Source of the DNA: Candidatus Woesearchaeota archaeon
GTDB lineage: Archaea; Nanobdellota; Nanobdellia; Woesearchaeales; SM23-78
Length of the DNA stretch: 64,000 nt
Reading direction: 5' to 3'
NCBI GenBank assembly: GCA_016933095.1
Contig: JAFGBP010000042.1
Location: forward strand, 19,691 to 83,690
Of the stretch, positions 22,392 through 63,311 are shown in pieces (the stretch's first letter is position 1; the number at the start of each line of letters is the position of its first letter). Under the pieces are notes generated by a model. That model did not search any database and was not told the origin of the DNA. It saw only the letters and a list, made by a program, of their open reading frames with translations. The translations under genes and the position numbers were made by a program.

Positions 22392-22488
22392 TGCAGCCGC
22401 CGGGATTCGAACCCGAGTCACAGGCTCTTTCCAGATCCAAGAAAGGACCCTTGGGAAGCCCAGATCATAGCCACTAGACCACGGCTGC
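22392..22488 (-). tRNA. tRNA-Gly (anticodon CCC inferred) with ~24-nt intron at canonical 37/38 position
   Basis: acceptor GCAGCCG/CGGCTGC, T arm TCGGG-TTCGAAT-CCCGG, anticodon loop TTCCCAA by linear numbering; 97 nt total. Confidence 0.6.
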
Positions 22489-26073: not shown

Positions 26074-26176
26074 TTAAGAAGTTTACTAAAAAAGACAAAC
26101 TATTTATAACATGAATCGCAAAAAGAAAAACAGTTTAGGAGAAGACAGGATGCCATATGGCATCTGAGGTATCAAA

Positions 26177-26614
26177 ATGAACATCAAGTATAACATCAAG
26201 TATATTTATTTCACGGTGATTACGCTGATTTTCCTGGGAGGCTGCAGTGCATCCACGAGCACGGCATATTACAAGGGCATAGAGAGCGCAGGACCACTAG
26301 AGACCTGCGCGGAATACCAGGATGACGCCTGTGGATTGTTCTCCTGCATGGTCGACATGTGCTGGTGCGACGACTCCAGATCGAAACCCATCCTCTACGA
26401 GAAGGAAAACACCATCATTTCCAACGAGGAACAGGCCGTTGCGTACGTGCAGGAATACTTGAAGCTTGAAGATAAGAGCGAAACCTTGGCCAAAAGCGCA
26501 GTGAAAATCAACAACGTATTCTACAACGTCTTCACGGAAGACACGACAGGATATGAAGAAGCCTTTACTCTGGCAGTGGACGGGACCATACTAAGGACGA
26601 CCTGTGGAGTATGA
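26177..26614 (+). CDS. Cys-rich putative lipoprotein
   Basis: signal + LGGCSAS lipobox-like; 145 aa. Confidence 0.45.
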   Translation: MNIKYNIKYIYFTVITLIFLGGCSASTSTAYYKGIESAGPLETCAEYQDDACGLFSCMVDMCWCDDSRSKPILYEKENTIISNEEQAVAYVQEYLKLEDKSETLAKSAVKINNVFYNVFTEDTTGYEEAFTLAVDGTILRTTCGV

Positions 26615-26664
26615 TATCCGAGATATCCGAAGACATCCTCAAAACAAAGACAGAAAAACCCATC

Positions 26665-27522
26665 TCAGCGCAGTATCTTCACGTCGCAAGTCGCGCTCTC
26701 CTTGAAGTCCTCTGCGTCGCTCGCGGTCCCGACTATGACGCCGTAGTGCATCGGGATCGCGACCTTGCACTTCTTGAAGATGGCAGTCGCCTGGGCAGCT
26801 TCCTTGGCGCTCATCGTATAAGTCCCTCCGACCGGAAGAAGCGCGATGTCCGTCTCTATCTGCTGCATCTCAGGTATCAGGTCTGTGTCACCCGCGTGGT
26901 AGACACGGACGCCATCCATCTCCAATATGAAACCCACCCATCCGTTCTCTTTTGGATGCGTGTTCTTGTCCACAGTATATGCCGGGACTGCAGTCACTTT
27001 CTCATCACCAAGATCAATCGTCTGCCCAACGCTTATCAGCATTATCTCCTTGACTTGAAGGCCGCTCAGCTTGCTCTGGCAGTCAGGCACCGTGATGATC
27101 ACAGTCTCGGGCTGTATTATCTTCTCTACGTCCTTTATGCTGCAATGGTCGTAGTGAGGGTGGGTGATAAGAATATAGTCTGCTTTCTCCAAGCCTTGTC
27201 CTCCCTCCACAAGCTGGAAAGGGTCGATGTAGAATACGCGCCTGTTCTTGATCTTAACGCCAGCGTGGCCTGTCGACTCGATGTCAAGCCCCAGTATCTT
27301 CATGTCATCTTCACGTCCTGAGATTGTGATATTGTCCTTGGCATCACCATTATTTAAAGTTAATGAATTCCGTGCATCAGAGGCTCCTGATTCCTGATGA
27401 ACGCATCCTACGAGGCCGAATACAAAGATGAGCAACACGACAAATAGCGTGACAAGTCTCGTGACGGGCCACTCAAGCATCCAAACACATCTTACCATCA
27501 GAGACTTATAGCGCTTCTTCAA
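26665..27522 (-). CDS. metallo-beta-lactamase fold hydrolase with N-terminal TM/signal
   Basis: YILITHPHYDHCS (HxHxDH motif). Confidence 0.75.
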   Translation of the reverse strand: MKKRYKSLMVRCVWMLEWPVTRLVTLFVVLLIFVFGLVGCVHQESGASDARNSLTLNNGDAKDNITISGREDDMKILGLDIESTGHAGVKIKNRRVFYIDPFQLVEGGQGLEKADYILITHPHYDHCSIKDVEKIIQPETVIITVPDCQSKLSGLQVKEIMLISVGQTIDLGDEKVTAVPAYTVDKNTHPKENGWVGFILEMDGVRVYHAGDTDLIPEMQQIETDIALLPVGGTYTMSAKEAAQATAIFKKCKVAIPMHYGVIVGTASDAEDFKESATCDVKILR

Positions 27523-27576: not shown

Positions 27577-29931
27577 TTGAAGAAAGACACCTTTGAGGTA
27601 ATTATGGCTGTATTCGTCCTAGTCACCATTCTAGCTGGTGCCTTGATTCTCATGCCCGTCTTCACGCTCGCGACTGGCAACATCACTTGCGAGTTCGTCC
27701 TAGGAACCAGCTGTCCTGGTGATAGTGTGAAGCTGATAGGCGTGCAGAATGACACTGGCGGCTTCAACAACGCGCACGCCCAGAATTATACTGTCGACAC
27801 GTATGCTTACTCCTTATGCTGCAACACGACTAACGCGAGCATCACGCTGAACAACACCTGCGAGACAGAGCCCGTAATCAAGTTGAGCGCAGAGACCAAC
27901 GCTCATATTGAGGAGGGAAATGGAACGTTGTATACTGGTGGAAACTGCGTAGCCCGTACAGACACTGACGACACAGACTTTTCAGCAGGGACGAGCTCTA
28001 ACATGGCAGTCCAGGGAACTGGGACAAACGCGAACCTGACAAGCAGCGATACGAGCGGAAGCTTCAGCATGTTAATAGATGGGTTAAAGACAAGGAAGTG
28101 GTACAACATCACGGTCTCGACCGAGGCGTATTATGGACTTGAGACAGGAAGATGGAGTGATGACGGGCCAGGAGCAAGCCTCCCTTCGATCGATACGACA
28201 AGCTTGATAGCGCTCTGGCACTTGAACAATGAGAGCGCGTATGACGAGAACGACACGCAAGTGTATGACTTCTCAGGGAGCAACAACAATCTTACTAATC
28301 TGAGCAACGTGCAAATTACGAGCTTCGGGCAGTTCGACAAGGCCTACGAATCAAGTGGTGCAGACGGACAACTCTGTAAGGATGGAGGTATAGGCCTTGA
28401 GGATGAGTACACAATCTTAATGTGGATATACCCAAACACCTTGGGAGCGAACGACAACTTCATAGGAACGTACGGAGGAAGCGGGAGCGGCACAGAATGG
28501 CTCTTCAGGATTAACGACACAGGGCTTGCCACGAGCTTACAGTTCTATGATGGAAACAACGTGGGAGGCACCCAAGAAGTCCTTAGTGTGGGCGAATGGC
28601 AGATGATCGGCGCCAGAGGCAACACCACCAACATCACACTCTATCACGACGGGGTGCGGGTGGAGGAAGGAGTCCTTACCTCTTCGTTATCAAGCACAAG
28701 GACGCTGTGCATCATGGACCTGCCGGCGGCTGAATACGAGTTTGACGGCCGGATGGATGAAGTCGCGATATGGAACCGTTCTCTTTCAGAAGAGGAGATA
28801 ATGAACTTCTACCGTAGAGGCGCCTTTAGGCTCAACCTCTCAGTCAGGAGCTGTGACGACGCCTCCTGCTCTGGAGATTCATACACCCAGATAACCGACA
28901 CGAGCTTTATGAGCTCAAAAGTCGCAACAGGCGAGAGTGACAACAGGTACTTCCAATACTTGCTTGAGTATTCTGACAACTCATCAGTCTACAACATATC
29001 GGTGAATGACATCTCTGTCGATTACTGCGACGCATCCATATCCGCATGCCTTGCAAGCAATTTCCAGGCAGTATACTGTTCCTACACGAGCGGGAGCTGC
29101 TCGGGCACCCAGAACTGCGTGCTTACGATGGCGAGCAGCGAGGGCTATAACGGGACCAATGCCCACGTCGGGAACTGCAGCACTTATTCGTACAAGGCCT
29201 GCTGCGGTCTATTGAACTACCCGCCAGAGCAGCCCACCACCACATATCCGATCGACGGTAATGACACTGTGAGTGAGAGGGGGCCTAACTTCAACTGGAC
29301 AAACGTATCAGACCCTGAAGGGGATGACGTGACTTTCACGATCAACCTGACTTGCGGGGCTGGATGCTCCTGCGCCGACATCGGAGTAAGCGGCATAAAC
29401 CAAACCAACTACTCTTATGGAGGATACTTGTGTGTTGACGTGAATTACAACTGGACTGTGAGCGCGTGCGACAGCTACGGCTCCTGCAACACGTCCGAAC
29501 AGTCAAACTTCACGATCCCGAGCGTGCTAGACTTCATAATGATAGCCAACGGCACGGATTTCGGCACGCTGAGCCCTGGCCAGACGAATGACACGACCAA
29601 CAACGACCCCATCCCACTGGTAGGAAGGAACCTAGGTAACGTCCTGATCAACGCGACCATAAACGCGACAGCGCTCTACACCTCGGTAGGAATGGACACG
29701 ATCTATTTCAGGTACTTGGCGGCTGATAATGAGACTGGCAGCATAGTGACGGCGTGCTCGCAAACCACGTTCGCCAACATGGACACAGCAGAGAAGAATG
29801 CCTTCTGCAACTTGTCATTCGAGAATGCAAGCGACGAGGTCAGGATAGACTTTGAGATCACCATCCCGCCAGACGAGCCTCCAAGGGATACTAACAGCAC
29901 GATAGAGATAATTTACGTAAGCGCCGAATAA
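27577..29931 (+). CDS. large surface protein with LamG/concanavalin A-like lectin domain, heavily sequon-rich
   Basis: N-terminal TM/signal; DGRMDEVAIWNRSLSEEEIMNFY (LamG_3-like); dozens of NxT/S sequons; Cys-rich. Confidence 0.6.
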   Translation: MKKDTFEVIMAVFVLVTILAGALILMPVFTLATGNITCEFVLGTSCPGDSVKLIGVQNDTGGFNNAHAQNYTVDTYAYSLCCNTTNASITLNNTCETEPVIKLSAETNAHIEEGNGTLYTGGNCVARTDTDDTDFSAGTSSNMAVQGTGTNANLTSSDTSGSFSMLIDGLKTRKWYNITVSTEAYYGLETGRWSDDGPGASLPSIDTTSLIALWHLNNESAYDENDTQVYDFSGSNNNLTNLSNVQITSFGQFDKAYESSGADGQLCKDGGIGLEDEYTILMWIYPNTLGANDNFIGTYGGSGSGTEWLFRINDTGLATSLQFYDGNNVGGTQEVLSVGEWQMIGARGNTTNITLYHDGVRVEEGVLTSSLSSTRTLCIMDLPAAEYEFDGRMDEVAIWNRSLSEEEIMNFYRRGAFRLNLSVRSCDDASCSGDSYTQITDTSFMSSKVATGESDNRYFQYLLEYSDNSSVYNISVNDISVDYCDASISACLASNFQAVYCSYTSGSCSGTQNCVLTMASSEGYNGTNAHVGNCSTYSYKACCGLLNYPPEQPTTTYPIDGNDTVSERGPNFNWTNVSDPEGDDVTFTINLTCGAGCSCADIGVSGINQTNYSYGGYLCVDVNYNWTVSACDSYGSCNTSEQSNFTIPSVLDFIMIANGTDFGTLSPGQTNDTTNNDPIPLVGRNLGNVLINATINATALYTSVGMDTIYFRYLAADNETGSIVTACSQTTFANMDTAEKNAFCNLSFENASDEVRIDFEITIPPDEPPRDTNSTIEIIYVSAE

Positions 29932-29990
29932 GAGAGCGCAATGAGAAGAAGAGAAAAAGACGATCACTAAACAGCTGAGATGATAAAAAT

Positions 29991-31193
29991 ATGAGAATAA
30001 GCAGCATCACCAAAAAAAACGTGAAGAACACCTTCATCATCGCGTTCATCATAGCCTTGATGCTCTCTCTCACAGCATCGGCATCGGCTCTTGGAGTTAG
30101 CCCTGCGAAGAAGACAGTTTACTTTGAGCCCAACCAGACAGTTGAACTTAATTTCAAAGTGATAAACTCGGACGCTCTGGACGTGCCAGTATTCCTCAAC
30201 GCCCTGGGAGACCTCCAGGATCGCATGTTCTTCTCCGAAGGGAATAAGCTATTGTTGCAGAAGGACGTCGGGATTATGAGCTTCAAGGTGTTCCTGAATC
30301 TTCCGGAAGAGATGAGCCCGGGAGTACATACGACTTACATCAAGCTGACGCCGCAGTTCCCAAGCACAGGCAACATGCTAAGGGCGTTTGCAGCGCCCAT
30401 GATCCCAGTGTTGGTTAGGGTTCCTTATCCCTCTAAGTACGCAGAGGTAGACCTTGCAATCCAGGAAGTTGATGAGGGGACTGCAGTCCCAGTGCTTTTA
30501 GAGTTTGACAACCTGGGTTCTGAGGACATCGCGGTGGCAGAGGGAAGCGTGACCCTTATTAACCTGGCAGAAACTGGAACGGCAGGTGAAGAGAGCTTGA
30601 TAGGAAGCACTGCAGTGCTTGAATGCCCGAAGATTAGCGTCGGCGCCAACTCTTACGGAAAGACGGCATGCGAGCCGACCCAAGCCTTGAGGAGCGGGGA
30701 ATACCTGGCACAGGTAAGATCCCATTATGATAACACCCATGTAGACTTCGACCGAAATGTTAGCATAGGGAAGCCAATAGTCCGCGTAACCCACCTAGCC
30801 ACGCGAAACATCTTAACGAAGAGGATAAACACAGTCGTGTTCGGAGTCCGCAGCGAGTGGAACAGGGAGCTCCTAGTGACGGGGTTCATAAGGATCGACG
30901 GATTCCAGACTGAGATGCCTCTCGTCACCCTGGCACCAGGAGAAGAGAAGGAAGTCATAGGCTACTTTGATGCGACAGACACGACGCCAGGGCTCAAGAA
31001 CATGAGCATCATGCTCGGATATGCAGACCAGATCAGGACAGAGGATTACCTTGTAAGCATTGAGGAGGGAGAGCCTGAAGCTGAGCCGCCTACAAGGCTC
31101 ATAGGGAACATGATCCTTGCAGTGGCCATAATCGTAGTCCTGGCTGCAATCGCGATAATGCTGAAGAACGTTCTCAGGAAGAAAAGGGAGTAG
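29991..31193 (+). CDS. cell-surface protein with signal peptide and C-terminal membrane anchor
   Basis: N-term hydrophobic signal, C-term LIGNMILAVAIIVVLAAIAIML + KKRE. Confidence 0.5.
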   Translation: MRISSITKKNVKNTFIIAFIIALMLSLTASASALGVSPAKKTVYFEPNQTVELNFKVINSDALDVPVFLNALGDLQDRMFFSEGNKLLLQKDVGIMSFKVFLNLPEEMSPGVHTTYIKLTPQFPSTGNMLRAFAAPMIPVLVRVPYPSKYAEVDLAIQEVDEGTAVPVLLEFDNLGSEDIAVAEGSVTLINLAETGTAGEESLIGSTAVLECPKISVGANSYGKTACEPTQALRSGEYLAQVRSHYDNTHVDFDRNVSIGKPIVRVTHLATRNILTKRINTVVFGVRSEWNRELLVTGFIRIDGFQTEMPLVTLAPGEEKEVIGYFDATDTTPGLKNMSIMLGYADQIRTEDYLVSIEEGEPEAEPPTRLIGNMILAVAIIVVLAAIAIMLKNVLRKKRE

Positions 31194-31323: not shown

Positions 31324-31881
31324 ATGGCAGATAGTGTTTTCAGAGGCACATTAGGATTCTTCATGGACCTTGGAATATATGATGTAGTCCTGCCATTCCT
31401 GCTCGTGTTCACTATCGTCTTCGCCATCCTTGAAAAGACAAAGGCCTTCGGCCTTGAGAAGATAGGCGACAGGGAATACACGAGGAAGAACCTAAACGCG
31501 ATGGTTGCCTTTGTCGCGGCTTTCTTTGTCGTGGCCTCAGCTCAGCTCGTTGCCATTGTGAACGAGGTGCTAGCCAACACCGTCCTTCTACTGCTCGTTT
31601 CCATTTGCTTCCTGCTACTTGCAGGATCCTTCCACAAAGGAGACAAGGAATTTGCCCTTGAAGGAGGATGGAACACCGCATTCATGGTCATCATGTTCAT
31701 AGGCATAGTCCTGATATTCTTCAATGCAGTGGGGTGGCTGCCCATCATTTGGGAGGCCATATTCTACAAGTTCGACTCTGTAACAGTTTCATCCATCATA
31801 CTCATAATTGCGATTGTCGCCTTTATGTGGTATATTACCGGAGGGGTGGGCCCAAAGGAAGAAAAGGACAAGAAGAGCTAG
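31324..31881 (+). CDS. 4-TM membrane protein, paralog 1 of a tandem triplet
   Basis: shared N-terminal core DVVLPFLLVFTIVFAILEKTKAFG with the next two genes. Confidence 0.55.
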   Translation: MADSVFRGTLGFFMDLGIYDVVLPFLLVFTIVFAILEKTKAFGLEKIGDREYTRKNLNAMVAFVAAFFVVASAQLVAIVNEVLANTVLLLLVSICFLLLAGSFHKGDKEFALEGGWNTAFMVIMFIGIVLIFFNAVGWLPIIWEAIFYKFDSVTVSSIILIIAIVAFMWYITGGVGPKEEKDKKS

Positions 31882-32013
31882 GTACCACGAGCCTAGTGGC
31901 GCGTAAGCGAATCTTCCAAGAAAACAGAAAAATCGTTATTCAACGTCATCAAACCAAAAATATATAAATCCTGGATGAGAAAAACCAAGGTGGGCAAAGG
32001 AGGTTAATGAAAA

Positions 32014-32604
32014 ATGGCTTTCCAAGACTTTTTTTACACGCTGGAAATGTGGGGCGTCATGGATGTGGTGCTCCCGTTCATACTTGTATTCACGATAGTC
32101 TTCGCGGTCCTTGAGAAGATCAAGATACTGGGCGAAGGAAAAAGGCAGTACAACACTGTATTCGCTCTTGTCATGGGCGCAACCTTTGTCATGCCGCACA
32201 TAACAGGATCCTATATAGAGCTTATTGGGTTCGACCCGGTAGTTGTGCTCAACCAATCCTTGCCCCAAGTCTCCATTATCGTCGTGGCCATCATCATGGT
32301 CCTTCTTATAATAGGGGTCTTTGGTAACCAGATCGACTTTGCGGGAACACCTCTATCAGGTTGGATAGTCATATTGGCCTTCATCGCAGTCGGGCTCATA
32401 TTTGGCAGCGCCGTCGGATGGTTCTACCTCCCGGACTGGCTCTACTTCCTGAGGGATCCGGAAATACAGTCCCTTGTCGTGATGATACTAGTGTTTGGTA
32501 TCATAATCTGGTTCGTCACGAAGGAGGACAGCAAGGACAAGAAGAGGACGTTTGGCGACATAATTCAGGAGACCTTCGGAAGCCCCATGATAAAGAAGAA
32601 GTGA
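32014..32604 (+). CDS. 4-TM membrane protein, paralog 2
   Basis: DVVLPFILVFTIVFAVLEKIKILG; same architecture. Confidence 0.55.
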   Translation: MAFQDFFYTLEMWGVMDVVLPFILVFTIVFAVLEKIKILGEGKRQYNTVFALVMGATFVMPHITGSYIELIGFDPVVVLNQSLPQVSIIVVAIIMVLLIIGVFGNQIDFAGTPLSGWIVILAFIAVGLIFGSAVGWFYLPDWLYFLRDPEIQSLVVMILVFGIIIWFVTKEDSKDKKRTFGDIIQETFGSPMIKKK

Positions 32605-32723
32605 TCATGGAAAGTGATGGCTGGAGCTGGATAATAAGTAGTTAATTAAAAGCAAATTATTTTTATTTTAATAACCATTTTAATTTGTCAAAATCCTCAT
32701 TTAAGCAGGCAAGAGAAATCTAG

Positions 32724-33365
32724 ATGGCAACGCTACTTGATGTTGGAATACTGGAACACTTCGGCTCGATATTCGTAGTCATAATCCTCTTCGCGATCGT
32801 ATTCGGGATTCTGGAGGCGAAGAAGCCTTTCGGAGATGCCAGCAAGGGTTTGAATGCAATCCTAGCGCTCTTTGTAGCGGCCTTATTTCTGGTATCAAGT
32901 GAAGCATCAGGGATGATAAAGGTCTTGGTGCCTTGGTTTGTCGTCGTCATAATATTCATCTTCTTTGTCATGCTAATGTTCAGGATGTTCGGCGTAGAGG
33001 ACAATACGTTCGTGAAGGTCGTCGGGACATCCCAAGTCTATATCTGGATAATAATCTTCGCCATTCTTGTAATGATGGGAGCGTTGGGAAATGTCTTTGG
33101 TCAAAGCTTCCTCGAGGCAGGCGGCGGAGGAAACACAGTCATAGGCCAGCCGTCTTCAGGTGCGGAAGTAGTCATTGGACCTGACGGAGAACCCGTTTCC
33201 ATTCCAGTGAGTACTGCAAGCGCGAGCACAACGAGCACCACGACAAGCAACTTCACAGTGAACCTCATGAACACGCTTAGGCATCCAAAAGTCTTAGGGA
33301 TGATCTTTGTGCTGCTGACCGGCGCGTTCCTGATGATATTCCTGACAAAGCCTGTCTCAGTATAG
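32724..33365 (+). CDS. 4-TM membrane protein, paralog 3 (with Ser/Thr-rich insert)
   Basis: FVVIILFAIVFGILEAKKPFG; extra STASASTTSTTTSN segment. Confidence 0.55.
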   Translation: MATLLDVGILEHFGSIFVVIILFAIVFGILEAKKPFGDASKGLNAILALFVAALFLVSSEASGMIKVLVPWFVVVIIFIFFVMLMFRMFGVEDNTFVKVVGTSQVYIWIIIFAILVMMGALGNVFGQSFLEAGGGGNTVIGQPSSGAEVVIGPDGEPVSIPVSTASASTTSTTTSNFTVNLMNTLRHPKVLGMIFVLLTGAFLMIFLTKPVSV

Positions 33366-33422
33366 TTCTGAGTTTTGCATCGAAAACTGCATAGAGAAAG
33401 AAAACCAAAAAGCCTTATCCCT

Positions 33423-34016
33423 TTATTTCTTCTTAAGTCCCTGAGTAATCCGATTGAGCTCGTTCACGTTCTCTGTGAAGACAGGCAACACCTTGGCAAA
33501 TACGCGCTCCATGGCCTTGATCTCGGCCCCGACCGCCAAAATGTTCTTGTCATACTCGCCGACCTTCCCAATGATGGCTTGGTGGAGCTTGTCAAAGCTC
33601 TCCTGCAAGGTGTCGATGCGCTGGTTGATCTTGATAATCTTGGAATCCACCTCACCCTTCCAATCCATGAGTCCCGAGAAGTCTTTGGAGACAGCGTTCC
33701 ATTTCTCCTCGACGATGCTCTCTATCATCTCATCTATCTGCTCATCCATGGGCTCGTCAGCGCCCACGGCTCCCGCAGCATCGGGAGGAGGAGGCTCATC
33801 AGGCCCGCCCATAGGCGCGCTTCCCATGTCAGGGACTGGAGATCCTGGAGCAGCGCCTCCGACCAGATCTGCCTGGTTGAGAGCATCAAATATCTGTGTA
33901 GAACTATAGCCGTTCCTCTGAAGGGCCTGGACGATTTGGTTGTTGTCAAAACCTCTAGATCTTAAAGTCTTCACCTGGTCCACTGGAAGGTCTGAAGGCC
34001 TATTGAATGATGCCAA
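33423..34016 (-). CDS. UBA-like N-terminal domain + coiled-coil protein
   Basis: QIVQALQRNGYSSTQIFDAL UBA-like; Pro/Ala/Gly linker; C-terminal heptads. Confidence 0.5.
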   Translation of the reverse strand: MASFNRPSDLPVDQVKTLRSRGFDNNQIVQALQRNGYSSTQIFDALNQADLVGGAAPGSPVPDMGSAPMGGPDEPPPPDAAGAVGADEPMDEQIDEMIESIVEEKWNAVSKDFSGLMDWKGEVDSKIIKINQRIDTLQESFDKLHQAIIGKVGEYDKNILAVGAEIKAMERVFAKVLPVFTENVNELNRITQGLKKK

Positions 34017-34252
34017 TTATGAAACACCTCTTGTTTTCCACCATGCGTGGAAAGTTTTCCCTCTTAACAAGTCATCTTGATTTATCGGGTATATAAAATT
34101 TTTGATGTTGCAAGGGGTGCGTCCAGAAAGGCCGCCTCGCGTAGTCTGATGGTGATTTGTAGAGATGCGTCTACACTCGTTTGCAACACGAAAGAAAGGA
34201 TGCGGACGAAGCGCGGCCAGGAGACTCTGGACGCACCCGATGTTGCAAGTTC

Positions 34253-34858
34253 CTATCTTCGCCTGCGAACAGGAGGTTTTGCACGCACCCTCTGGGCAAC
34301 GGCTAGGCGAGGAGCAGGCTTGGAAGCAGAAGATGATTCCGACTTTGGAGCTGTTGAAGCCGGAGAACCAACAGGCGAATCATCAAAAGAAGAAGGTAGC
34401 GTCCTTAATATTATTCCTTTCTCCTCGATTAGGCGATCAAACTCCTTCCTTGTCAGGAACTCCATAGGCTGCCACATGTCAAGGTAGCGCTCAATCACTT
34501 TGAACTCCTCTTTCTTCGTGAGGTTCTTCATCTCATTGTTAATCAGCATGAGCTTGTCCATGATGTCCTTTAGCTCGTGCTTTAGGTCTAGGATGTCATC
34601 GTTTATCATCTTCAAGTCTTTGGAAAGGCCTCTCTCCAGCTCTATCATGCCGCCCTCGGAGACCTGGCTCTTGTTCCTCATCAGCACGAACCGCTCTTCA
34701 AGAATCCTTAAGTTGGCACCTATAGTGTTCACGTCTTTCCCCATCTTCTCGAAGGCATCCATGGTAGCAGGCATCTTCTTTACGGGCTTAGCGCTTGGCC
34801 TTTGCGGTGGAGGCGGAGGCACTCCTGCCATTGGAGGAGGCGGGATATTCTGGTTCAT
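34253..34858 (-). CDS. proline-rich N-terminus + coiled-coil protein (weak paralog of 33423..34016)
   Basis: MNQNIPPPPMAGVPPPPPQRP; coiled-coil core similar in pattern to neighbour. Confidence 0.5.
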   Translation of the reverse strand: MNQNIPPPPMAGVPPPPPQRPSAKPVKKMPATMDAFEKMGKDVNTIGANLRILEERFVLMRNKSQVSEGGMIELERGLSKDLKMINDDILDLKHELKDIMDKLMLINNEMKNLTKKEEFKVIERYLDMWQPMEFLTRKEFDRLIEEKGIILRTLPSSFDDSPVGSPASTAPKSESSSASKPAPRLAVAQRVRAKPPVRRRR

Positions 34859-34908
34859 GATAGTATCGACTCCTGGATTCAGAGTATTTAATATTTTTGG
34901 AAAAGAGA

Positions 34909-35125
34909 GGCTCTGTCAAAATCTCTCGTAGCCCGCTGCTACCGCTCATCAATAACGTCCTCGAGCCGAGTCTAGTCTGACCGCATGGCATTTCGTAGGC
35001 GCAGCCAGGGGCTACTTCTCTCGTAGCCCGCTGCTACCGCTCATCAATAACGTCCTCGAGCCGAGTCTAGTCTGACAGCATGGCATTTCGTAGGCGCAGC
35101 CAGGGGCTACTCTTTGAACAGAGCC
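34909..35125. mobile_element. MITE-like element copy 2 with internal ~95-bp tandem duplication; flanked by GGAAAAG direct repeats
   Basis: same TIRs as copy 1 (left TIR lacks one T); interior segment ctctcgtagcccgctgctaccgctcatcaataacgtcctcgagccgagtctagtctgac.gcatggcatttcgtaggcgcagccaggggctac present twice. Confidence 0.65.
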
Positions 35126-35329
35126 GGAAAAGCGAAGGCTTTTCCAGACAAAGAACGAAGTTCTGCTCTGGGAAAAAATGATGTCAAAAGACGTCAGAAG
35201 AGGGGCAAAAGATTTATATAATCTCAAGCTCAGGAGAGAGATATCAGTTAGCTTTAGCTATAACATCGCTGGGCTGACGGAAAAGAAGAGGAAAAGGGAA
35301 AATTAACAGCAAAAGAGGTTGGAACTAGA

Positions 35330-37645
35330 TTGGTTGATGATAAGGAAGGCAGGAAGCCAGGCATACCTTACAGGATCGACCATGTGGGAGAAGACACTAT
35401 CCTGAAGGTAGACTGCGAGAAGCTGAACACCATCCCTTCCATAGAGGACAATGCCAACATCATGTCTTTCGTGGTCGAGAGGCTCATCGAGAACAAGGCC
35501 GCGACAAAGATCGTCTTCAGCCAGAAACGCGAGTACGAGTATGACTATGCTCAGACGAGGATCCTTGCAGAGCTAGCCTCAGTCTACAACAAGCTGATCA
35601 AGCAGAAGGAGCTCTTCAGCTACGAGAACCTTAACATGAAGCTGCGAAGCCGCGAGGCTGCCAGGTTCTACACCCAGATCCACAACCTGATATTCGATGT
35701 CTTGAAGAAGGACCCGGCGACCGCGTACGTCGAGCTCCGTCGGATGTATAGGCATGAGAAGATACTCTTCGAATCCGAGGAGAAGGAGAGGGGGCAGAGC
35801 ATAGAGTCATACAAGCTCTTCACGCACACCCTTGCTTATTTCATAGAGGAGCTTGACAAGACAAGACTCATTACTATCCTAAAGCCTTACCTGGCAGGCC
35901 ACAAGCCTTATGACAGGGAAGTGTACAGGAAGATATTCACCCCTAACATCAAGCCTGATTTCTTGTTCACAAAACTCATGGCTACCTATCCCAAAGGTGC
36001 GGTGGAGCTTGACAACTACAAGATCGGTCAGAGTGAGGTCGTGATCTTTGAGCTCGAAGACAACGTCCAGTACCTCTATCACATAACTCCTCCGGAATTC
36101 AAGCTGAAAGAGGAGCATTACGAGATCCTAGACATTGCGAGGAACATAATCTCTGAGCACAAGCCAACGAGGCAGGAGTTCATAGACCCTACGAGGATGA
36201 GGGAGGTATTCTTCAACGTAGGCCAGGACTTGATTGAAGAGCTTTCAGGGTATCGCAAGGTTAAGATAACTCCGGATGAGATCAAGGATCTCACGATGAT
36301 ACTTATCAGGTACACTGTCGGATTCGGCCTGATAGAAGTGCTTCTCGAGGATCCGAAGATTCAAGATATAACATTCAACAGCCCTGCAGGGCAGAGCACG
36401 ATATTCCTCGTCCACCAGGACTTCGGAGAGTGCAAGACTAACATAATACCGACGATCCCTGACAGCGAGAGCTGGGCGTCGAAGCTCAGGATGATAAGCG
36501 GCCGTCCCTTGGATGAGGCCAACCCGATCCTTGATACTGAGATCGAGATCCCGGGCGTAGCAAGGGCGAGGATCGGAGTGATAGCTCCGCCGCTGAACCC
36601 TTTCGGGATCGCTTATGCTTTCAGAAGGCACAGGGACAAGCCCTGGACCCTTCCGTTGTTCATCAAGAGCAGGATGATAAGCACGCTGGCTGCCGGCCTC
36701 ATCAGCTTCATAGTCGACGGCAACAGGACTATACTCGTTGCGGGGACTAGGAGCGCGGGAAAGACCAGCGTCGTTGGCAGCCTGCTCGTAGAGATTATGA
36801 GGAAGTACAGGATCATAACAATTGAGGATACGTTGGAGCTTCCTACTGACAGCCTGCGGGCCATGGGATACAATATCCAGCCGATGAAGGTGGCAAGTGC
36901 CTTCACGAAAGGCACTACAGAAGTGCCTGCAGATGAAGGTATCAGGACAACCTTGAGACTTGGAGATTCGGCCCTTATTGTTGGAGAGGTAAGGAGTACG
37001 GAAGCAGCTGCGCTATATGAGGCCATGAGGGTCGGCGCTCTTGCTAACGTAGTCGCCGGTACGATCCATGGTGACAGCCCTTATGGAGTGTTCGACAGGG
37101 TAGTAAACGACCTCAAAGTCCCTAAGACCAGCTTCAAAGCGACAGACATAATAATAGTCTCTAATCCTATCAGGAGCCCTGACGGAATACACAAGTGGAG
37201 GAGGGTGACGCAGATCACCGAGGTCCGGAAGGAATGGGAAGACGATCCGCTGCGGGAGAAGGGTTTTGTCGACCTCATGAAATATGACTCGAAGACAGAC
37301 CAGCTAGAACCGACCGATGACCTGATAAACGGAGACAGCGACATTCTCAAGGCCATTGCCGGAAACGTGCGCGAGTGGGCCGGCAGTTGGGATGCTGTCT
37401 GGGAGAACATAACCCTCCGCGCAGACATGAAGACCGCAATTGTGAAGGCTGCAGAGGAGGAGAACAACCCTGACCTTCTAGAGGCTCCTTTTGTCATCAA
37501 GTGCAACGATTACTTCCATAAGATATCAGAGAAGGTGAGAGCCAGGTATGGCAAGCTTGACAGCGAGAGGATACTCTTCGAATGGAAGGAGTGGCTGAAG
37601 AAAGAGCTTAAAGCCAAGCAATCTAAGAAATCGTTTGAGAGATGA
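35330..37645 (+). CDS. type IV filament / archaellum-type secretion ATPase (FlaI/GspE/VirB11 family) with long N-terminal extension
   Basis: Walker A GTRSAGKTS, GEVRSTEA, QDITFNSPAG; TTG start with AGAGGT RBS; 771 aa vs ~540 for typical FlaI. Confidence 0.8.
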   Translation: MVDDKEGRKPGIPYRIDHVGEDTILKVDCEKLNTIPSIEDNANIMSFVVERLIENKAATKIVFSQKREYEYDYAQTRILAELASVYNKLIKQKELFSYENLNMKLRSREAARFYTQIHNLIFDVLKKDPATAYVELRRMYRHEKILFESEEKERGQSIESYKLFTHTLAYFIEELDKTRLITILKPYLAGHKPYDREVYRKIFTPNIKPDFLFTKLMATYPKGAVELDNYKIGQSEVVIFELEDNVQYLYHITPPEFKLKEEHYEILDIARNIISEHKPTRQEFIDPTRMREVFFNVGQDLIEELSGYRKVKITPDEIKDLTMILIRYTVGFGLIEVLLEDPKIQDITFNSPAGQSTIFLVHQDFGECKTNIIPTIPDSESWASKLRMISGRPLDEANPILDTEIEIPGVARARIGVIAPPLNPFGIAYAFRRHRDKPWTLPLFIKSRMISTLAAGLISFIVDGNRTILVAGTRSAGKTSVVGSLLVEIMRKYRIITIEDTLELPTDSLRAMGYNIQPMKVASAFTKGTTEVPADEGIRTTLRLGDSALIVGEVRSTEAAALYEAMRVGALANVVAGTIHGDSPYGVFDRVVNDLKVPKTSFKATDIIIVSNPIRSPDGIHKWRRVTQITEVRKEWEDDPLREKGFVDLMKYDSKTDQLEPTDDLINGDSDILKAIAGNVREWAGSWDAVWENITLRADMKTAIVKAAEEENNPDLLEAPFVIKCNDYFHKISEKVRARYGKLDSERILFEWKEWLKKELKAKQSKKSFER

Positions 37646-37719
37646 AATACCGACGAGATATGCATAAGAGACACTATCAAGATACTCGAATACCAGGAAA
37701 CACAGGACTGATTTGAAAA

Positions 37720-39993
37720 ATGCCTTTTGAGAACATGGATGAGCTTCGGAAGAAGTATGAGAGCAAGCTAAAGGGCAGTTTCGGCGAAGAGCCGGGATTC
37801 AGCTCGAAGAAAAAGAAGGATAAGTCTGGCGGAGAGCCAGATGCAGATGATGATCAGAGCTATATCTCAAGTGATTATTACAATTTCAAGAAAGAGAGTG
37901 TGCCTGCCCACTTCACGCTTTATGAGAAGGCGTGCAACCTGGCAGAGCAGGTCCTCAAGATCGAGCCTGACAAGGCTAAGATTGCCGAGATGAAAGAGGC
38001 CATAGAGACCTGCCACCTGCAGATCACTCCTGCCGGCGCGACGAGCTTCTCCATCCTCATGCCGCTCATCATTGCCCTTGTCACAATAACCCTCACTTAT
38101 CTTGTTCCCGCACTTCTCTACCCTGGCAAGGAGAGCATGTTCTTTGTTGTATTCTCTCTCTTTGTGGGGCTCGGCATGATACTGCCGCTGCAGAAGCTCC
38201 CTTTCTTCCTTGCGAACAGCTGGAGGATGAAGGCAAGCAACCAGATGGTGCTGTGCGTGTTCTACGTCGTCACGTACATGAGGCACACGAGCAATCTGGA
38301 GCGGGCTATCAGCTTCGCATCAGACCACCTGACCCCTCCCTTGTCGCTCGACCTGAAGAAGGTACTCTGGGATGTCGAGAGCGAGAAGTTCAGCAGCCTG
38401 AAGGAGAGCCTTGATGAATACCTCCAGACATGGAGGAAGTTCAACATGGAGTTCGTCGAGGCCATACACCTCATTGAGTCCTCGCTCTACGAGTCGAGCG
38501 AGACGAGAAGGCTGAACGCGCTTGATAAGTCCTTGAACGTCATCCTTGACGAGACCTATGAGAAGATGCTCCACTACGCCCACAACCTGAAAGGGCCTCT
38601 CTCAGCGCTTCACATGCTTGGCATCATCCTTCCCATCCTCGGCCTTGTCATCCTGCCATTGATGGTGAGCTTCATGCCCGAAGTGAAGTGGTATCATCTC
38701 GTCTCGCTCTACAACTTTGTGCTTCCGGCGCTCGTGCTCTTGCTATCGAAGAGCATCTTGTCGACAAGGCCTACAGGATACGGAGATACGGACATCTCAG
38801 AGAGCAATCCTGAGCTCCGCAAGTACAGGTACATCCTGATACCTATCGGGAAGCTGGAGATAAAGATAAGCCCGCTCATAGTCGCAGTGATAGTGTTCGG
38901 GATCCTTTTCCTCATCGGGACGTTCCCTCTAATACTCCATGCATCCAATCCTGATTTTGACATAGTGCTTACTGCAAAGGGCCTAAAGCAGATATCCACT
39001 ATCAATGATCCTGAGGCAACGCATTACTTCCTGGGATACAGGAACGAGATAATCGCAGGCACTGTGACTGACACTCGCATCGGTCCGTTCGGCCTCGGTG
39101 CCTTGATCCTCAGCATTGTCTTCGTCGTGGCGTTCGGAGTTAGTACAGGTCTTTATTACAGCCTCAAGAGCAAGAACGTGATTAAGATTCGGGATCAGTC
39201 GAAGAAGCTTGAGCAGGAGTTCGCCGCCGCCCTCTTCCAGCTAGGCAACCGTCTGGGAGATGGCCTTCCCGCAGAGATTGCGTTCAACAAGGCTGCGGAA
39301 GTAATGGAGGGGACTGTGAGCGGCAAGTTCTTTGAGCAGGTAAGCATGAACATAACCAAGCTTGGCATGAATGTCGAGCAGGCCGTCTTCGACGAGAAGA
39401 AGGGAGCGCTCATCTATTATCCTTCGAATCTCATCGAGAGCAGCATGAAGGTGCTCGTTGAGAGCAGCAAGAAGGGTCCTATGGTAGCGAGCCAGGCTCT
39501 TATCAACGTCTCTGAATACATCAAGCAGATCCACAGGGTCGATGAGAGGCTAAAGGATCTCATGGCTGACATCATCAGCGACATGAGGAGCCAGATCAAG
39601 TTTCTGACGCCTGCCATCGCCGGCATCGTCGTCGGGATCACCAGCATGATCACCCAGATAATCGGGAACCTGTCCAGGAGGCTCGGCGAGTTGGCTACTG
39701 AGGCAAGCCAGGCCGGGAATGTAGGCGCCGGAACGAGCCTGCTGTCTATGTTCGGGACTGGAGTCCCGACTTATTTCTTCCAGATAATGGTAGGCATGTA
39801 TGTCTTCGAGATTACTTTCATAATGACCCTGATGATCAACGGCATAGAGAACGGGAGCGACAAGCTAAGCGAGAAGTACATGCTCGGATCCAATCTAAAG
39901 AACACAATCTTGACATATGCTTTCATCACTCTTGCTGTTTCGATACTGTTCAACATGGTCGCGGGTTCGATCCTTTCCAGCATGCAGGGATGA
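37720..39993 (+). CDS. large polytopic membrane protein, putative FlaJ/TadC-like platform protein
   Basis: multiple TM clusters separated by large soluble domains; immediately downstream of ATPase; family assignment by context only. Confidence 0.5.
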   Translation: MPFENMDELRKKYESKLKGSFGEEPGFSSKKKKDKSGGEPDADDDQSYISSDYYNFKKESVPAHFTLYEKACNLAEQVLKIEPDKAKIAEMKEAIETCHLQITPAGATSFSILMPLIIALVTITLTYLVPALLYPGKESMFFVVFSLFVGLGMILPLQKLPFFLANSWRMKASNQMVLCVFYVVTYMRHTSNLERAISFASDHLTPPLSLDLKKVLWDVESEKFSSLKESLDEYLQTWRKFNMEFVEAIHLIESSLYESSETRRLNALDKSLNVILDETYEKMLHYAHNLKGPLSALHMLGIILPILGLVILPLMVSFMPEVKWYHLVSLYNFVLPALVLLLSKSILSTRPTGYGDTDISESNPELRKYRYILIPIGKLEIKISPLIVAVIVFGILFLIGTFPLILHASNPDFDIVLTAKGLKQISTINDPEATHYFLGYRNEIIAGTVTDTRIGPFGLGALILSIVFVVAFGVSTGLYYSLKSKNVIKIRDQSKKLEQEFAAALFQLGNRLGDGLPAEIAFNKAAEVMEGTVSGKFFEQVSMNITKLGMNVEQAVFDEKKGALIYYPSNLIESSMKVLVESSKKGPMVASQALINVSEYIKQIHRVDERLKDLMADIISDMRSQIKFLTPAIAGIVVGITSMITQIIGNLSRRLGELATEASQAGNVGAGTSLLSMFGTGVPTYFFQIMVGMYVFEITFIMTLMINGIENGSDKLSEKYMLGSNLKNTILTYAFITLAVSILFNMVAGSILSSMQG

Positions 39994-41128: not shown

Positions 41129-42022
41129 ATGGATTCTGGTCTGGAAATTCTTAATCTCATTTGGGTGCAAGGGCAAACCTGTGGCGGAGATTCCATGGCA
41201 ATCATGGATACAGAGCGGCCTGACCTTCTTACATTCCTCTCACAAAACAAAATAAAGCTGCTTTATCACCCCATTCTCCACCCAGTCGACGGACCAGAGG
41301 CAAAGAAACTCTTTGAAGACTGCAAGGAAGGAAGAACAAAAGTAGACATTTTCATATTCGAAGGCACAATCCCGACAAAAGAAGGATGCGGAGACTGGCC
41401 TGGAACCGACATTAAGACCCTTGTAAAAGACCTTGCGTCCAAAGCAGGAATCACGATCGCGCTAGGAACCTGCGCGTCGTTCGGAGGAATCCCTTCGGCG
41501 CCTCCCAACGAGTCAGGATCAGTAGGACTCCAATTTCACGGCCACAAGAAAGGCGGATGGCTGGGAGAGAACTACATCTCAGAGCAAGGCGCTCCCGTCA
41601 TAAATATTCCTGGATGCCCTGCACACCCAGACTGGATCATAAGAACAATTCAAGCTTTTGTGTTGGAAAAGCCAGTCATTTTGGACGACTACAACAGGCC
41701 CAAAGACTTTTTCGAGGAGAAAGCCCACAGAGGATGCAAGCAATGCGAGTTTCACGAGCGAGGGCTGTGGGCAGAGGAGTTCACAGAGACAGGATGCCTG
41801 GCAGCAAAGCTTGGATGCAAGGGAAGGACCACGAACGCAGACTGCAACGTGAGGCTCTGGAACGGCGTTTCCTCCTGCACCAGGAGCGGAGCCCCGTGCA
41901 TAGGCTGCTGCGATCCAGGATTCCCCATCTCAATGACACCCTTCAACAAGGAAACCTTAAACCTGCCAGAGGACGTCAGATCCCTTGCGAATGAGAAGAA
42001 AAAGATCCTATACGGAGATTAA
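41129..42022 (+). CDS. [NiFe]-hydrogenase small subunit (three Fe-S clusters, no Tat signal); proximal-cluster CxxC replaced by C-G-G-D
   Basis: WVQGQTCGGDS, GTCASFGG, IPGCPAHP, H..C / C..C..C distal and CIGC medial cluster ligands all present. Confidence 0.9.
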   Translation: MDSGLEILNLIWVQGQTCGGDSMAIMDTERPDLLTFLSQNKIKLLYHPILHPVDGPEAKKLFEDCKEGRTKVDIFIFEGTIPTKEGCGDWPGTDIKTLVKDLASKAGITIALGTCASFGGIPSAPPNESGSVGLQFHGHKKGGWLGENYISEQGAPVINIPGCPAHPDWIIRTIQAFVLEKPVILDDYNRPKDFFEEKAHRGCKQCEFHERGLWAEEFTETGCLAAKLGCKGRTTNADCNVRLWNGVSSCTRSGAPCIGCCDPGFPISMTPFNKETLNLPEDVRSLANEKKKILYGD

Positions 42023-42040
42023 TATCATGGAGACGATGAG

Positions 42041-43570
42041 ATGGAAGAAGATATGACTGAAAAGGACATGACAAGCACCCCGACAAACTGGATTGAAGGA
42101 GACCTTACAGTTGAGATTACAGTCAACGCCCACAACAAGATAGCCGATGCAAAAGCCATGGGATTGATGTATAGGGGGCTGGAAAACATCTTCATCGGGC
42201 AAAGGCCGTTTGACGCCATGAGGATGAGCCAGAGGGCTGACGCCGCTTGCTCCACGGCGAATGGGACTGCCGGAGCCCTGGCCATTGAGAGGATGATGGG
42301 GTTCAAGCCTCCAAGGAATGGACAGCTCATCAGGGATATAGTGCTCGGGGCCAGCATTGCAGCAAACCACCTCACTCATTTTTATTTCACCTTGGGCCCC
42401 GGATTAGCAAGCCCTGAATACAAAAAGTTCAAGATGCATCACGAAATGCAAAAGAGATTTGACCCATCAAAAAGCGCGCTTCTCAAGGACGTGTTGAGAA
42501 AGGCAAGGATGCCGTTGCATAGGGCCATCGCGATTTTCGGCGGAAGATCATATCACCCCATGCACGCAGTGCCAGGAGGAGTATGCAGCATCCCAAAGTA
42601 CTCTGATCTGGCAGCGGCCAGTACAAGCGTCGCAGGCGCCAAGGAATTTTTGGAAGAGAACTTGCTTGGCGGGGTGAAGATGGAAGAATGGGCCAGGATA
42701 AGGACCGCCGACGAGCTCCTTGAACTACTAAAGGACAAGGCGTTTGCTGATTCAGACATCGGGCTTTTCATCAGGTATTCTCAGGAAATAGGACTTCACA
42801 AACTAGGCGAAGGAACCCACAACAATTTCTTGTCCTTCGGATTCGGAGAGAACAAGCATAATAACGGCATTGATAGCAGTCCCGATTCATGGCTCTTCAA
42901 ACCCGGATACGTGGAGAATGGCCAGTACCACGACCTAGACATCCAGCACATAACCGAAGATACTTCCCACTCTTATTATGAGACTGAAAGGGACTGGAGA
43001 AGCCCCCAGCACGGCATGACAAAGCCTATCCCAAGGAAAGAGGGAGCTTACAGCTGGGTCAAGTCTCCCAGATACTTTGGCAGAGCCTGCGAGGTAGGAC
43101 CGCTTGCAAGGCAGATAGTAAATGCAGACCTGCTCTGCATGGACTTAGTAAAGACCTTTGGGGTGAACACGTTCACAAGAACCCTGGCAAGGTTCCGCGA
43201 GATAACCCTTATAGTCCCAAAGCTCAAAGAGTGGATTGCAGAGATCGAATTGGAAAAGCCATTCTACAAACCATTCCCCGAAGTCAGCAACGGCTCCGGA
43301 TACGGCCTGGTGGAGTCCCCTAGAGGGGCTCTTGGCCACTGGATAAACATAAAGGAAGGCAAGTGCACAACATACCAGATGATCAGCCCTATCGACTGGA
43401 ACGCCTCGCCAATAGACTCTAACGGGGCTCACGGCGCCCTAGAGCAGGCCCTGATCGGCTGCAGGATAAAGGACAAAGACAGCCTCATTGAAGCCTCTCT
43501 TGTCGTGAAGGGCTTTGACTCCTGCATTGCCTGCTCAATACGGCCTGCCGCGCCAGGTGATGAGGAATAA
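42041..43570 (+). CDS. [NiFe]-hydrogenase large subunit-like protein; L1 motif RxCGxC degenerated to R-A-D-A-A-C; C-terminal DSCIACSIR retained
   Basis: colinear with HyaB-type large subunits (MYRGLE..GQRPFDA...QRADAACSTAN...LIRDIV...HFY); C-terminal two Cys present. Confidence 0.85.
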   Translation: MEEDMTEKDMTSTPTNWIEGDLTVEITVNAHNKIADAKAMGLMYRGLENIFIGQRPFDAMRMSQRADAACSTANGTAGALAIERMMGFKPPRNGQLIRDIVLGASIAANHLTHFYFTLGPGLASPEYKKFKMHHEMQKRFDPSKSALLKDVLRKARMPLHRAIAIFGGRSYHPMHAVPGGVCSIPKYSDLAAASTSVAGAKEFLEENLLGGVKMEEWARIRTADELLELLKDKAFADSDIGLFIRYSQEIGLHKLGEGTHNNFLSFGFGENKHNNGIDSSPDSWLFKPGYVENGQYHDLDIQHITEDTSHSYYETERDWRSPQHGMTKPIPRKEGAYSWVKSPRYFGRACEVGPLARQIVNADLLCMDLVKTFGVNTFTRTLARFREITLIVPKLKEWIAEIELEKPFYKPFPEVSNGSGYGLVESPRGALGHWINIKEGKCTTYQMISPIDWNASPIDSNGAHGALEQALIGCRIKDKDSLIEASLVVKGFDSCIACSIRPAAPGDEE

Positions 43571-48222: not shown

Positions 48223-48370
48223 TTGATGATAGAGTGGCAGGACGCATTAGCAAGGGCGAGGATGCAAGGAGAAGATTAGTGAGCAAATGCGCCAAACCAA
48301 TCGAAAATAGCCAAAAAATAAAAAGAGGCAAAGACAATCATAACGTGGAACGATGCGTGAAGGTGATTAG

Positions 48371-48883
48371 ATGAGCGAATTCATGGGAAAAAAGATAAAT
48401 TTCTTCCTTGTGATAATGATAATGCTCGTACTGTGCGGGATGGGCATGCTGAGCATTTACTACCAAGTCACTTTCAAGAACTTTGACAAGAGATTCCAGG
48501 ACCTGAACCAGGACTACGGCTCCTGCCAGCAAAACCTCACTTACGCAGTGAGCACGCTCCAGCAGACCATCAGGAACCTTAACAATACAGAGAGCGACAT
48601 AAGGAAGTATGACACTCTCTACGAGCAAAAGGCACAGGAACTCTCTGACATTGAAAGCACACTCAAGGAAACCCAGACTAAGCTGCAGAGCGAGACTATG
48701 TTCAAGGAGCAGTTCAAGAAGAAGGCTGAGAACTATGAAAAGCAGATCCTTGAACAGACAGAGGAGCTGGAGGAGATTCGAAAGCAGAACAACGCGCTGC
48801 AGTTCCAAGTAAACGTCCTTAACGAGAGGGTAGAATGCCTTGACGAGGAGATAGAGAGCTATGAATACACGTGCTATGAATGA
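48371..48883 (+). CDS. membrane-anchored coiled-coil protein
   Basis: N-terminal TM, long heptad region. Confidence 0.45.
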   Translation: MSEFMGKKINFFLVIMIMLVLCGMGMLSIYYQVTFKNFDKRFQDLNQDYGSCQQNLTYAVSTLQQTIRNLNNTESDIRKYDTLYEQKAQELSDIESTLKETQTKLQSETMFKEQFKKKAENYEKQILEQTEELEEIRKQNNALQFQVNVLNERVECLDEEIESYEYTCYE

Positions 48884-48960
48884 GTGAGGAAAAGACTGAC
48901 AAAGCACATCTTAGCCGTGACGATTGGATTATGGCTTTATCTTTCCGATAAAGGGAGAAA

Positions 48961-49764: not shown

Positions 49765-49843
49765 TGACAGATGGAGGAATAGACTAATGCTATCAGCAGC
49801 AGGATCATGATGCAACAGATGATATTGGAGGAGTGATGTAAAA

Positions 49844-50806: not shown

Positions 50807-50914
50807 ACCGCGACCCAAACCTGCATCCAAGCAGCTCCACGTTCCGTCCCCATGGCAACTCGTCTGACGCAACCGAGTCTCGATACAGTCTGAACAGGCA
50901 ATGACAGACTTCAC

Positions 50915-63250: not shown

Positions 63251-63311
63251 ACTGCTTACTTCAACCTCTTTTTTTAAGTCACTGGTAAATGCTGGAGACT
63301 AACACTTGACC

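Follow-up and report, generated by a model that had tools for sequence, protein, structure and literature searches.

A conserved seven-gene locus of Woesearchaeota joining a diverged type IV filament ATPase and platform to five accessory protein families

A seven-gene locus in a 64,000-nucleotide stretch of the Candidatus Woesearchaeota (DPANN) contig JAFGBP010000042.1 (the whole stretch is referred to below as the window) encodes three small polytopic membrane proteins (A, B and C), two soluble proteins (D and E), an ATPase (F) and a large membrane platform protein (G). The F-G core belongs to the superfamily of type IV filaments (TFF), since F is a FlaI/GspE/CpaF-family ATPase and G has the platform fold. 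We lean towards reading the entire locus as a lineage-specific type IV filament machine, in which this known core is combined with five accessory families. The module is probably not a machine of a new kind; its likely task is to build or drive a fibre on the cell surface. A preliminary description of this DNA, made from the sequence alone, had proposed a non-canonical archaeal filament or secretion machine. The filament-type ATPase and platform of that proposal are borne out by the present analysis, while A, B and C as structural subunits, the upstream surface proteins as cargo and the paralogy of D and E are not. All seven open reading frames (ORFs) were recovered with the coordinates and lengths given previously, and the products of two of them are 100% identical to NCBI entries, G to JW711_03695 and B to JW711_03670, both on a 93-kb contig. 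Few DPANN archaea are as widespread as the Woesearchaeota, which are tiny and symbiotic; we know of no representative that is well characterised in culture, and of no account of how they attach to hosts or exchange material with them.

F is a PilB/FlaI/CpaF-type ATPase. As in other TFF ATPases, its RecA-like core carries Walker A, Walker B, Asp and His boxes (GTRSAGKTS, IITIEDTLEL, LIVGEVRSTEA and GTIHG can be read in the sequence), which agrees with the VirB11/GspE/FlaI-type core described earlier from the GTRSAGKTS and GEVRSTEA motifs, both of them intact. The Pfam family T2SSE is matched above its cutoff (1.2e-12). The best NCBIfam match is FlaI (4e-33), and TadA (TIGR03819) is found at 7e-30, both far below the equivalog cutoffs; for FlaI the score is 115 bits and the cutoff 550 bits. 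The PDB sequences matched include the archaeal GspE afGspE (2oap, 9e-26), CpaF (8rkd/9e24, 1e-18) and FlaI (6e-16), as well as PilT and VirB11. The core is preceded by a FlaI/GspE/CpaF-like N2 domain and, in front of that, by an N-terminal region whose length we place at about 200–235 aa rather than the roughly 250 aa first suggested, because the alignment with 2oap begins at F residue 235 and the alignment with FlaI 4ii7 starts with F residue ~326 opposite FlaI residue 121. The extension is thus real and well conserved, with a mean column identity of 57% among orthologs; no match to it was found in Pfam or the PDB with single proteins or ortholog sets, the PDB returning noise only. In L020 and L071, two related loci, the F homolog is contained in longest ORFs of 1279 and 1267 aa, a length that may come from a fusion to the gene upstream or may be artefactual, the ORFs having been extended to the first in-frame start.

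The assignment of G comes from structure and from transitive profile comparison. G itself has no match in Pfam (E ≤ 0.1), NCBIfam or the PDB sequences; T2SSF is the top Pfam family, below threshold, in 9 of its 36 orthologs (best E 0.014) and the top Pfam match in 19 of 35 halobacterial relatives. The AlphaFold model of G, computed from the 36 orthologs (predicted local distance difference test, pLDDT, 77.7; predicted template modelling score, pTM, 0.72), contains about nine transmembrane (TM) helices and two cytoplasmic helical bundles. Foldseek aligns this model with the cytoplasmic domains of EpsF (2vma/2vmb/3c1q), OutF (5nbg) and PilC (2whn; PilC-N) at a probability of 1.00, with a template modelling score of 0.66–0.75 on the target and a root mean square deviation of ~3 Å. 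Concomitantly, hhalign joins the G family to a halobacterial family with a probability of 99.7% (E 8e-27, 547 columns; 99.5% with a single halobacterial sequence), and NCBI/UniRef list the halobacterial members as 'type II secretion system F family protein' or as 'TadC'. G is therefore a highly diverged T2SSF/TadC-type platform, and a protein of the GspF/PilC/TadC/FlaJ fold is encoded beside the ATPase, downstream of F across a gap of 74 bp. The platform role had been proposed in the preliminary description, and the profile comparisons did not place the protein outside the T2SSF family. More than 3359 homologs of G, 56–76% identical, are found across Woesearchaeota. In the model, residues ~372–454 form an insert between the two halves of the protein, four β-hairpins around an extra helix. 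In the alignment with halobacterial relatives a gap falls here, and in many representatives of 640–700 aa the profile match is interrupted at this region; on the model, it may be an extracellular addition that only the Woesearchaeota form possesses.

The gene order around this core is widely kept. A pattern scan of species-representative genomes detected at least 570 stretches encoding a G relative; 80 loci were kept, all of them from Woesearchaeota or Nanoarchaeia-type metagenome-assembled genomes (MAGs), and the module was counted in the 42 with at least 7.3 kb of sequence upstream of G. The complete colinear arrangement A-B-C/D-E/F-G is present in 26 of these 42 loci, which span 55–76% identity in G. 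Another 12 loci contain F and G only, three of these keeping E as well, and four contain G alone. The genes are tightly packed, with median spacings of 26 bp between A and B, 6.5 bp between B and C, 62.5 bp between D and E and 11 bp between F and G. Some of the loci (L006, L008, L012 and dozens more) carry the module at 55–66% identity in assemblies titled 'uncultured Methanosarcinales archaeon' (binchicken/SRP co-assemblies), and these labels look wrong.

Pilin-like genes with class III signal motifs lie beside G or F in several related loci. In L064 a gene with the leader KRG/VQMSMNLIVSLII directly follows G, and in L057 three genes with KRG or KKG leaders are divergent from G. In L089 two G paralogs flank F and are followed by candidate pilins with RKGQ/MSLEMIIGLIILLVVAAVVI (the leader is also given as RKGQ/MSLEMIIGLIILLVV) and MKG/FKSVQEAIFTVSV. 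The latter locus, on a distant DPANN contig (25–6863), encodes platform paralogs of 740 and 711 aa around the ATPase in divergent orientation, an arrangement reminiscent of TFF system 1 and subsystems 4A/4B with their 'two platform proteins'.

The three membrane proteins upstream of the core are tandem paralogs, as had been noted before. BLASTP aligns A with B over the full length (E 7e-18), A with C at 1e-06 and B with C at 4e-06, and in related loci each protein forms its own orthologous group (the A group is present in 33, always in first place) and the order A-B-C is kept. Conserved residues concentrate in the first TM helix (TM1), where A carries the motif DVVLPFLLVFTIVFAILEKTK, and in loops whose predicted location is extracellular; in A and B, TM1 is nearly invariant and includes charged residues. 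The DVVLPF...LEK core once ascribed to all three proteins is present in A and B and occurs in a diverged version in C. Four TM helices per protein had been proposed, whereas the AlphaFold model of B (68 sequences, pLDDT 79, pTM 0.50) predicts helices at residues 2–13, 15–36, 44–64, 75–104, 114–133 and 149–173, of which the N-terminal one is amphipathic and the other five are TM helices. In B, the loop after TM1 and the C-terminal tail are rich in Lys, and C has a Ser/Thr-rich, sequon-bearing insert between its last two TM helices; this positive-inside charge pattern and the insert fit a predicted N-out/C-in topology, the opposite of that of a prepilin. The 338 homologs of B are all unnamed Woesearchaeota or Nanoarchaeota proteins. 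Searches of Pfam, NCBIfam, PDB sequences and profiles, with single proteins and ortholog sets, gave no relative of A, B or C, and Foldseek found no fold match for the B model in the PDB or BFVD. Two other identities were considered. A platform fragment was ruled out, as hhalign found nothing. A cryptic A24 prepilin peptidase would fit the five TM helices and the Asp at the start of TM1; the proteins lack a conserved second Asp, a GxGD motif and a Peptidase_A24 match, and this idea fails.

D and E contain no detectable TM segment or signal sequence and match only coiled-coil-type families, which suggests that they are cytoplasmic. D begins with a small three-helix domain of UBA-like character and continues through a Pro-rich linker into a conserved C-terminal half, helical or coiled-coil, with the motif KIGEYDKNI..GxEIKAMEKVFxKVLPxFTENVxEL (34 orthologs aligned). 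The UBA-like domain reported earlier is borderline: where the cutoff is 20.4 bits, UBA_3 reaches 20.8, and only 9–10 of the 34 orthologs match UBA or UBA_3. For E, 40 orthologs were aligned, 12 of which have weak FlaC_arch matches (best E 0.0063) amid many generic coiled-coil matches; the D orthologs have no FlaC_arch match. Pfam and NCBIfam scans of single proteins and ortholog sets found no real family for either protein, and their PDB matches were coiled-coil noise only. Of the accessory genes, E has the tightest linkage to F, from which it is divergently transcribed, and it still adjoins F in three loci that lack A-D. D and E had been presented as divergently oriented coiled-coil paralogs: both are soluble coiled-coil proteins, and both lie on the minus strand, divergent from F and not from each other. 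Their paralogy is not significant (BLASTP E 0.97, hhalign probability 3.7%); a colinear C-terminal motif (AMEKVFxKVLPxFTENVxEL in D, KVLEKYxxxWxPxxFVTRxEVEKI in E) is suggestive of kinship.

If the locus encodes a filament machine, the F hexamer would dock on the two cytoplasmic bundles of G and drive it by ATP hydrolysis, and G would insert pilins with class III signals into a surface fibre and perhaps also extract them. The pilins would be encoded elsewhere in the genome, as in related loci, and the fibre could be used for uptake or to attach to a host or a surface. None of the five accessory proteins would be part of the fibre; they would belong to the machine. A, B and C could form a hetero-oligomeric membrane collar around G, with their conserved extracellular loops facing the envelope, and D and E could make up a scaffold in the cytoplasm that touches F, perhaps at the additional N-terminal domain of the ATPase, in a role analogous to that of ArlX/ArlCDE in the archaellum or PilM/N/O in bacterial pili.

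A number of observations weigh against this interpretation. No gene for a pilin-like subunit with a class III signal peptide was found in the locus or elsewhere in the window by a class III motif scan and an inventory of membrane ORFs; nor does any of the membrane ORFs of the window look like an A24 prepilin peptidase. For both reasons the filament itself is something that we infer. The pilin calls in L057, L064 and L089 are based on N-terminal motifs alone, with nothing found by Pfam. G does not reach the Pfam gathering threshold for T2SSF (PF00482, 25.2 bits), and its homology is supported only by the structural match and by the hhalign comparison with halobacterial TadC-like proteins. The HMMER profile of the G family matches 1231 of 1.84 billion representatives and does not reach mainstream T2SSF, so that G constitutes a discrete family which HMMER alone does not join to the latter. 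An internal repeat or duplication is not detectable in the G sequence. A-D are missing beside F-G in 16 of the 42 loci, and the functional link could therefore be looser than an obligate complex; homologs of A-E were found neither in two halobacterial loci (searched with hidden Markov models) nor in three more distant DPANN loci. The analogy with ArlX/ArlCDE or PilMNO extends to location, topology and synteny only, and the assignment of the core to the halobacterial subsystem 4F, discussed below, is indirect.

The motor may instead have been repurposed and work without pilins, F-G and A-E together forming a membrane machine for secretion, for uptake of DNA or metabolites or for cell-cell contact with a host. 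A, B and C, whose invariant Asp, Glu and Lys residues lie at the ends of TM1, would then serve as a conduit or stator-like element. The lack of a pilin or peptidase in the locus and the window, the very strong conservation of G (56–76% identity over more than 3000 clusters), the position of the module amid housekeeping genes and the near-invariant TM1 of A and B, which carries charged residues, are consistent with such a change, and TFF remnants proposed to have altered their function have been published, namely subsystem 4D (10.64898/2026.04.22.720090) and the Thermoproteales systems. However, related loci with the same F and G families have pilin-like neighbours, archaeal pilin genes commonly lie away from TFF cores (PMC4858521), and A, B and C match no channel or stator family in Pfam, the PDB or Foldseek searches; we consider a repurposed motor possible but unlikely. 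That A, B and C are themselves non-canonical subunits replacing prepilins, as first proposed, would suit three tandem paralogs located where pilin genes often sit, and in the window paralogs a conserved Gly before a long hydrophobic helix loosely resembles a class III cleavage site. Proteins that are polytopic, with five TM helices, that have no fold relative and no pilin-like extracellular globular domain, and that are predicted to be N-out with no basic residue at -2, are nevertheless unlikely filament subunits. No precedent is known for pulling a five-TM protein from the bilayer into a fibre. The proposal, to which we assign a very low probability, is also opposed by related loci of DPANN archaea and Woesearchaeota in which canonical pilin-like genes adjoin G or F.

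The gene order itself admits another explanation, in which A-E are mere syntenic neighbours with an unrelated membrane or cytoskeletal function and only F-G is the machine. The 16 loci with F-G or G and without A-D, the absence of A-E from the halobacterial and distant DPANN versions, and the fact that the flanking genes for aspartyl-tRNA synthetase (AspRS) and a metallo-β-lactamase (MBL) are also syntenic with no functional link agree with this idea. It is countered by the fixed order, orientation and tight spacing in 26 loci over 55–76% G identity, by E remaining divergently paired with F where A-D are gone, and by the restriction of all five families to the clade with this type of F-G, and it seems to us quite improbable. 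A degenerate or divergent archaellum operon can hardly be credited at all. FlaI is the best NCBIfam match of F, and the E orthologs have their weak FlaC_arch matches (12 of 40); yet the FlaI score of 115 bits is set against a cutoff of 550 bits, no archaellin, ArlF, ArlG or ArlH gene is adjacent, F is closer to a halobacterial non-archaellum ATPase than to FlaI, and Woesearchaeota MAGs have been reported with separate flaB/H/I/J/K genes (PMC11606122). A lineage-specific type IV filament machine thus remains the reading that we favour.

The coordinates of the seven genes are given in Table 1.

Table 1. Genes of the locus; positions refer to the window.
Gene	Product	Position	Strand	Basis
A	Small polytopic membrane protein, 185 aa, first tandem paralog	31324-31881	+	ORF call
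B	Second paralog, 196 aa	32014-32604	+	ORF call
C	Third, most diverged paralog, 213 aa	32724-33365	+	ORF call
D	Soluble protein, 197 aa, UBA-like N-domain	33423-34016	-	ORF call
E	Soluble coiled-coil protein, 201 aa, Pro-rich N-terminus	34253-34858	-	ORF call
F	Secretion/pilus-type ATPase, 771 aa	35330-37645	+	ORF call, Pfam, NCBIfam, PDB
G	Divergent T2SSF/TadC/FlaJ-type platform protein, 757 aa, ~9 TM segments	37720-39993	+	AlphaFold, Foldseek, hhalign

The surface proteins encoded immediately upstream lie outside the conserved module. They are U1, a 784-aa protein with a Laminin_G_3 domain, and a second protein, of 400 aa, with a Sec signal and an anchor at its C-terminus. The sequon-rich proteins of this region (27577..31193) had been suggested as cargo of the machine; only in three close relatives do homologs of them occupy this upstream place, and the N-termini of these homologs are of the Sec type. 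U1 was likewise rejected as a giant pilin or as cargo, as its homologs have ordinary Sec-type N-termini and are upstream in only three loci. Further upstream, the gene for AspRS, often with an MBL-fold gene, lies just before the module in many Woesearchaeota (24658–27522 in the window; the synteny is seen in L001, L003, L012, L021, L049, L062 and L087), and AspRS is also upstream in a distant DPANN locus without A-E, an unusually stable housekeeping synteny. The module as a whole sits among housekeeping genes (AspRS, prolyl-tRNA synthetase-like, replication factor C, GTPase). Directly downstream of G, a small helix-turn-helix-like gene is followed by ORFs that by eye resemble the small and large subunits of [NiFe]-hydrogenase, and these in turn by BatA/VWA-like membrane proteins and a MoxR-like ATPase, also identified by eye (41129–43570 and 43898–51805 for the whole set). 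About 18 kb downstream, at 57961–60065 and 61343–63689 (minus strand), two genes for KaiC/RecA-like ATPases (with GKAGSGKT and GSAGTGKT) were recognised by eye, together with a sensor-kinase-like and a response-regulator-like gene; ArlH, too, resembles KaiC, but they are not linked to the locus.

The divergent spacer between E and F contains a 95-nt unit in two tandem copies that are 99% identical (34922–35111), and a third copy, ~85–90% identical as judged by eye from the alignment, is found in another intergenic region at ~8140–8255. The unit ends in terminal inverted repeats, GGCTCTG(T)TCAAAA...TTTGAACAGAGCC, and has an inner stem, GTAGCCC...GGGCTAC. By its sequence it looks like a miniature inverted-repeat transposable element or a small structured RNA; it has no Rfam match, its fold z-scores of -0.9 and -1.25 are not significant, and it is absent from 87 other loci. 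Rfam also detects a 97-nt tRNA (42.9 bits) at 22392–22488 on the minus strand, missed by ARAGORN, which is probably an intron-containing archaeal tRNA.

The F-G core type was already noted in nanoarchaea in 2016, whereas the five accessory families and the module seem undescribed, as we found no description of the A-E set or of the conserved module in the searchable literature; all homologs of G and B that carry a source name are called 'hypothetical'. The module is one of the best-conserved non-housekeeping loci in Woesearchaeota. Pfam-based screens miss the G family entirely, and surveys of DPANN surface machinery therefore probably undercount it. The link between the core and a pilus subsystem, together with five clade-restricted accessory families, provides targets for the interpretation of cryo-electron tomography data, for complex prediction and for annotation. 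In a further scenario, which we regard as distinctly unlikely, a hetero-oligomeric A/B/C collar and a cytoplasmic coiled-coil D/E ring would form a new envelope-spanning adaptor, by which a pilus-type ATPase and platform would come to serve in host contact, secretion or uptake independently of pilins. Nearly all Woesearchaeota would then possess such a device, which might be essential to them, and it would count as a central element of the symbiotic way of life of DPANN archaea.

The locus is not an archaellum. It shares with the archaellum motor an ATPase, a two-domain polytopic platform and coiled-coil accessory proteins encoded alongside, one of which, E, is faintly FlaC-like. Pfam and NCBIfam searches found no archaellin, ArlF, ArlG or ArlH among the locus proteins, in agreement with the preliminary description, which had recognised neither archaellins nor members of the FlaB/C/D/E/F/G/H set. 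Archaellum ATPases represent the minimal form; F has a long N-terminal domain in addition, and its FlaI score stays far under the equivalog cutoff. D and E lack a TM anchor, unlike ArlX. With bacterial Tad/Flp systems the locus has in common the CpaF/TadA-like ATPase core (E 1e-18 to 8rkd/9e24 and 7e-30 to TIGR03819) and a T2SSF-type platform. In contrast to those systems, the platform here is a single two-domain protein and not split into TadB and TadC, the ATPase is only ~28% identical, and the Flp pilin, TadZ, secretin and TadE/F/G are lacking.

The closest relatives of F-G, judged by sequence, are a halobacterial ATPase and TadC-like pair, exemplified by loci of Haloterrigena turkmenica (pHTUR04) and Halapricum desulfuricans. 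F is 38–41% identical to the ATPase adjoining the halobacterial TadC-like gene; when the F core was searched against plasmids with tblastn, the Haloterrigena ATPase was retrieved at 40.6% identity and the next best match, CpaF, at ~28%. The 'secretion system protein' encoded downstream of the Haloterrigena ATPase is a homolog of the G family by hhalign. In both groups the ATPase and platform genes are adjacent and in the same order, both ATPases have N-terminal extensions, G is homologous over ~550 columns (hhalign 99.7%), and both platforms stay below the Pfam T2SSF threshold. They differ in that the halobacterial loci contain pilin-like DUF7382, DUF7311, DUF7283 and DUF7285 genes (one with the leader ...AIEG/LPIRLVIALVVGVAAL) and none of A-E, in that G is ~150–190 aa longer, with an N-terminal extension and a β-hairpin insert, and in that three five-TM paralogs and two soluble coiled-coil proteins are additional components in Woesearchaeota. 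A CetZ tubulin gene lies ~8 kb away at the halobacterial locus, and CetZ2 co-localises with TFF subsystem 4F (Sivabalasarma & Albers 2026, preprint 10.64898/2026.04.22.720090). Further marks of this subsystem are PilA-family pilins (arCOG02981/arCOG10216), arCOG07564, which is a coiled-coil protein, and an S-layer-like protein. Because the pilin-like DUF genes and the nearby CetZ match the published descriptions, the halobacterial pair fits subclade 4F. Nanoarchaea carry a 4F-type ATPase with no identified pilins (Makarova et al. 2016, PMC4858521), and from this statement and the CetZ context, rather than from a tree, F-G is probably the nanoarchaeal branch of 4F.

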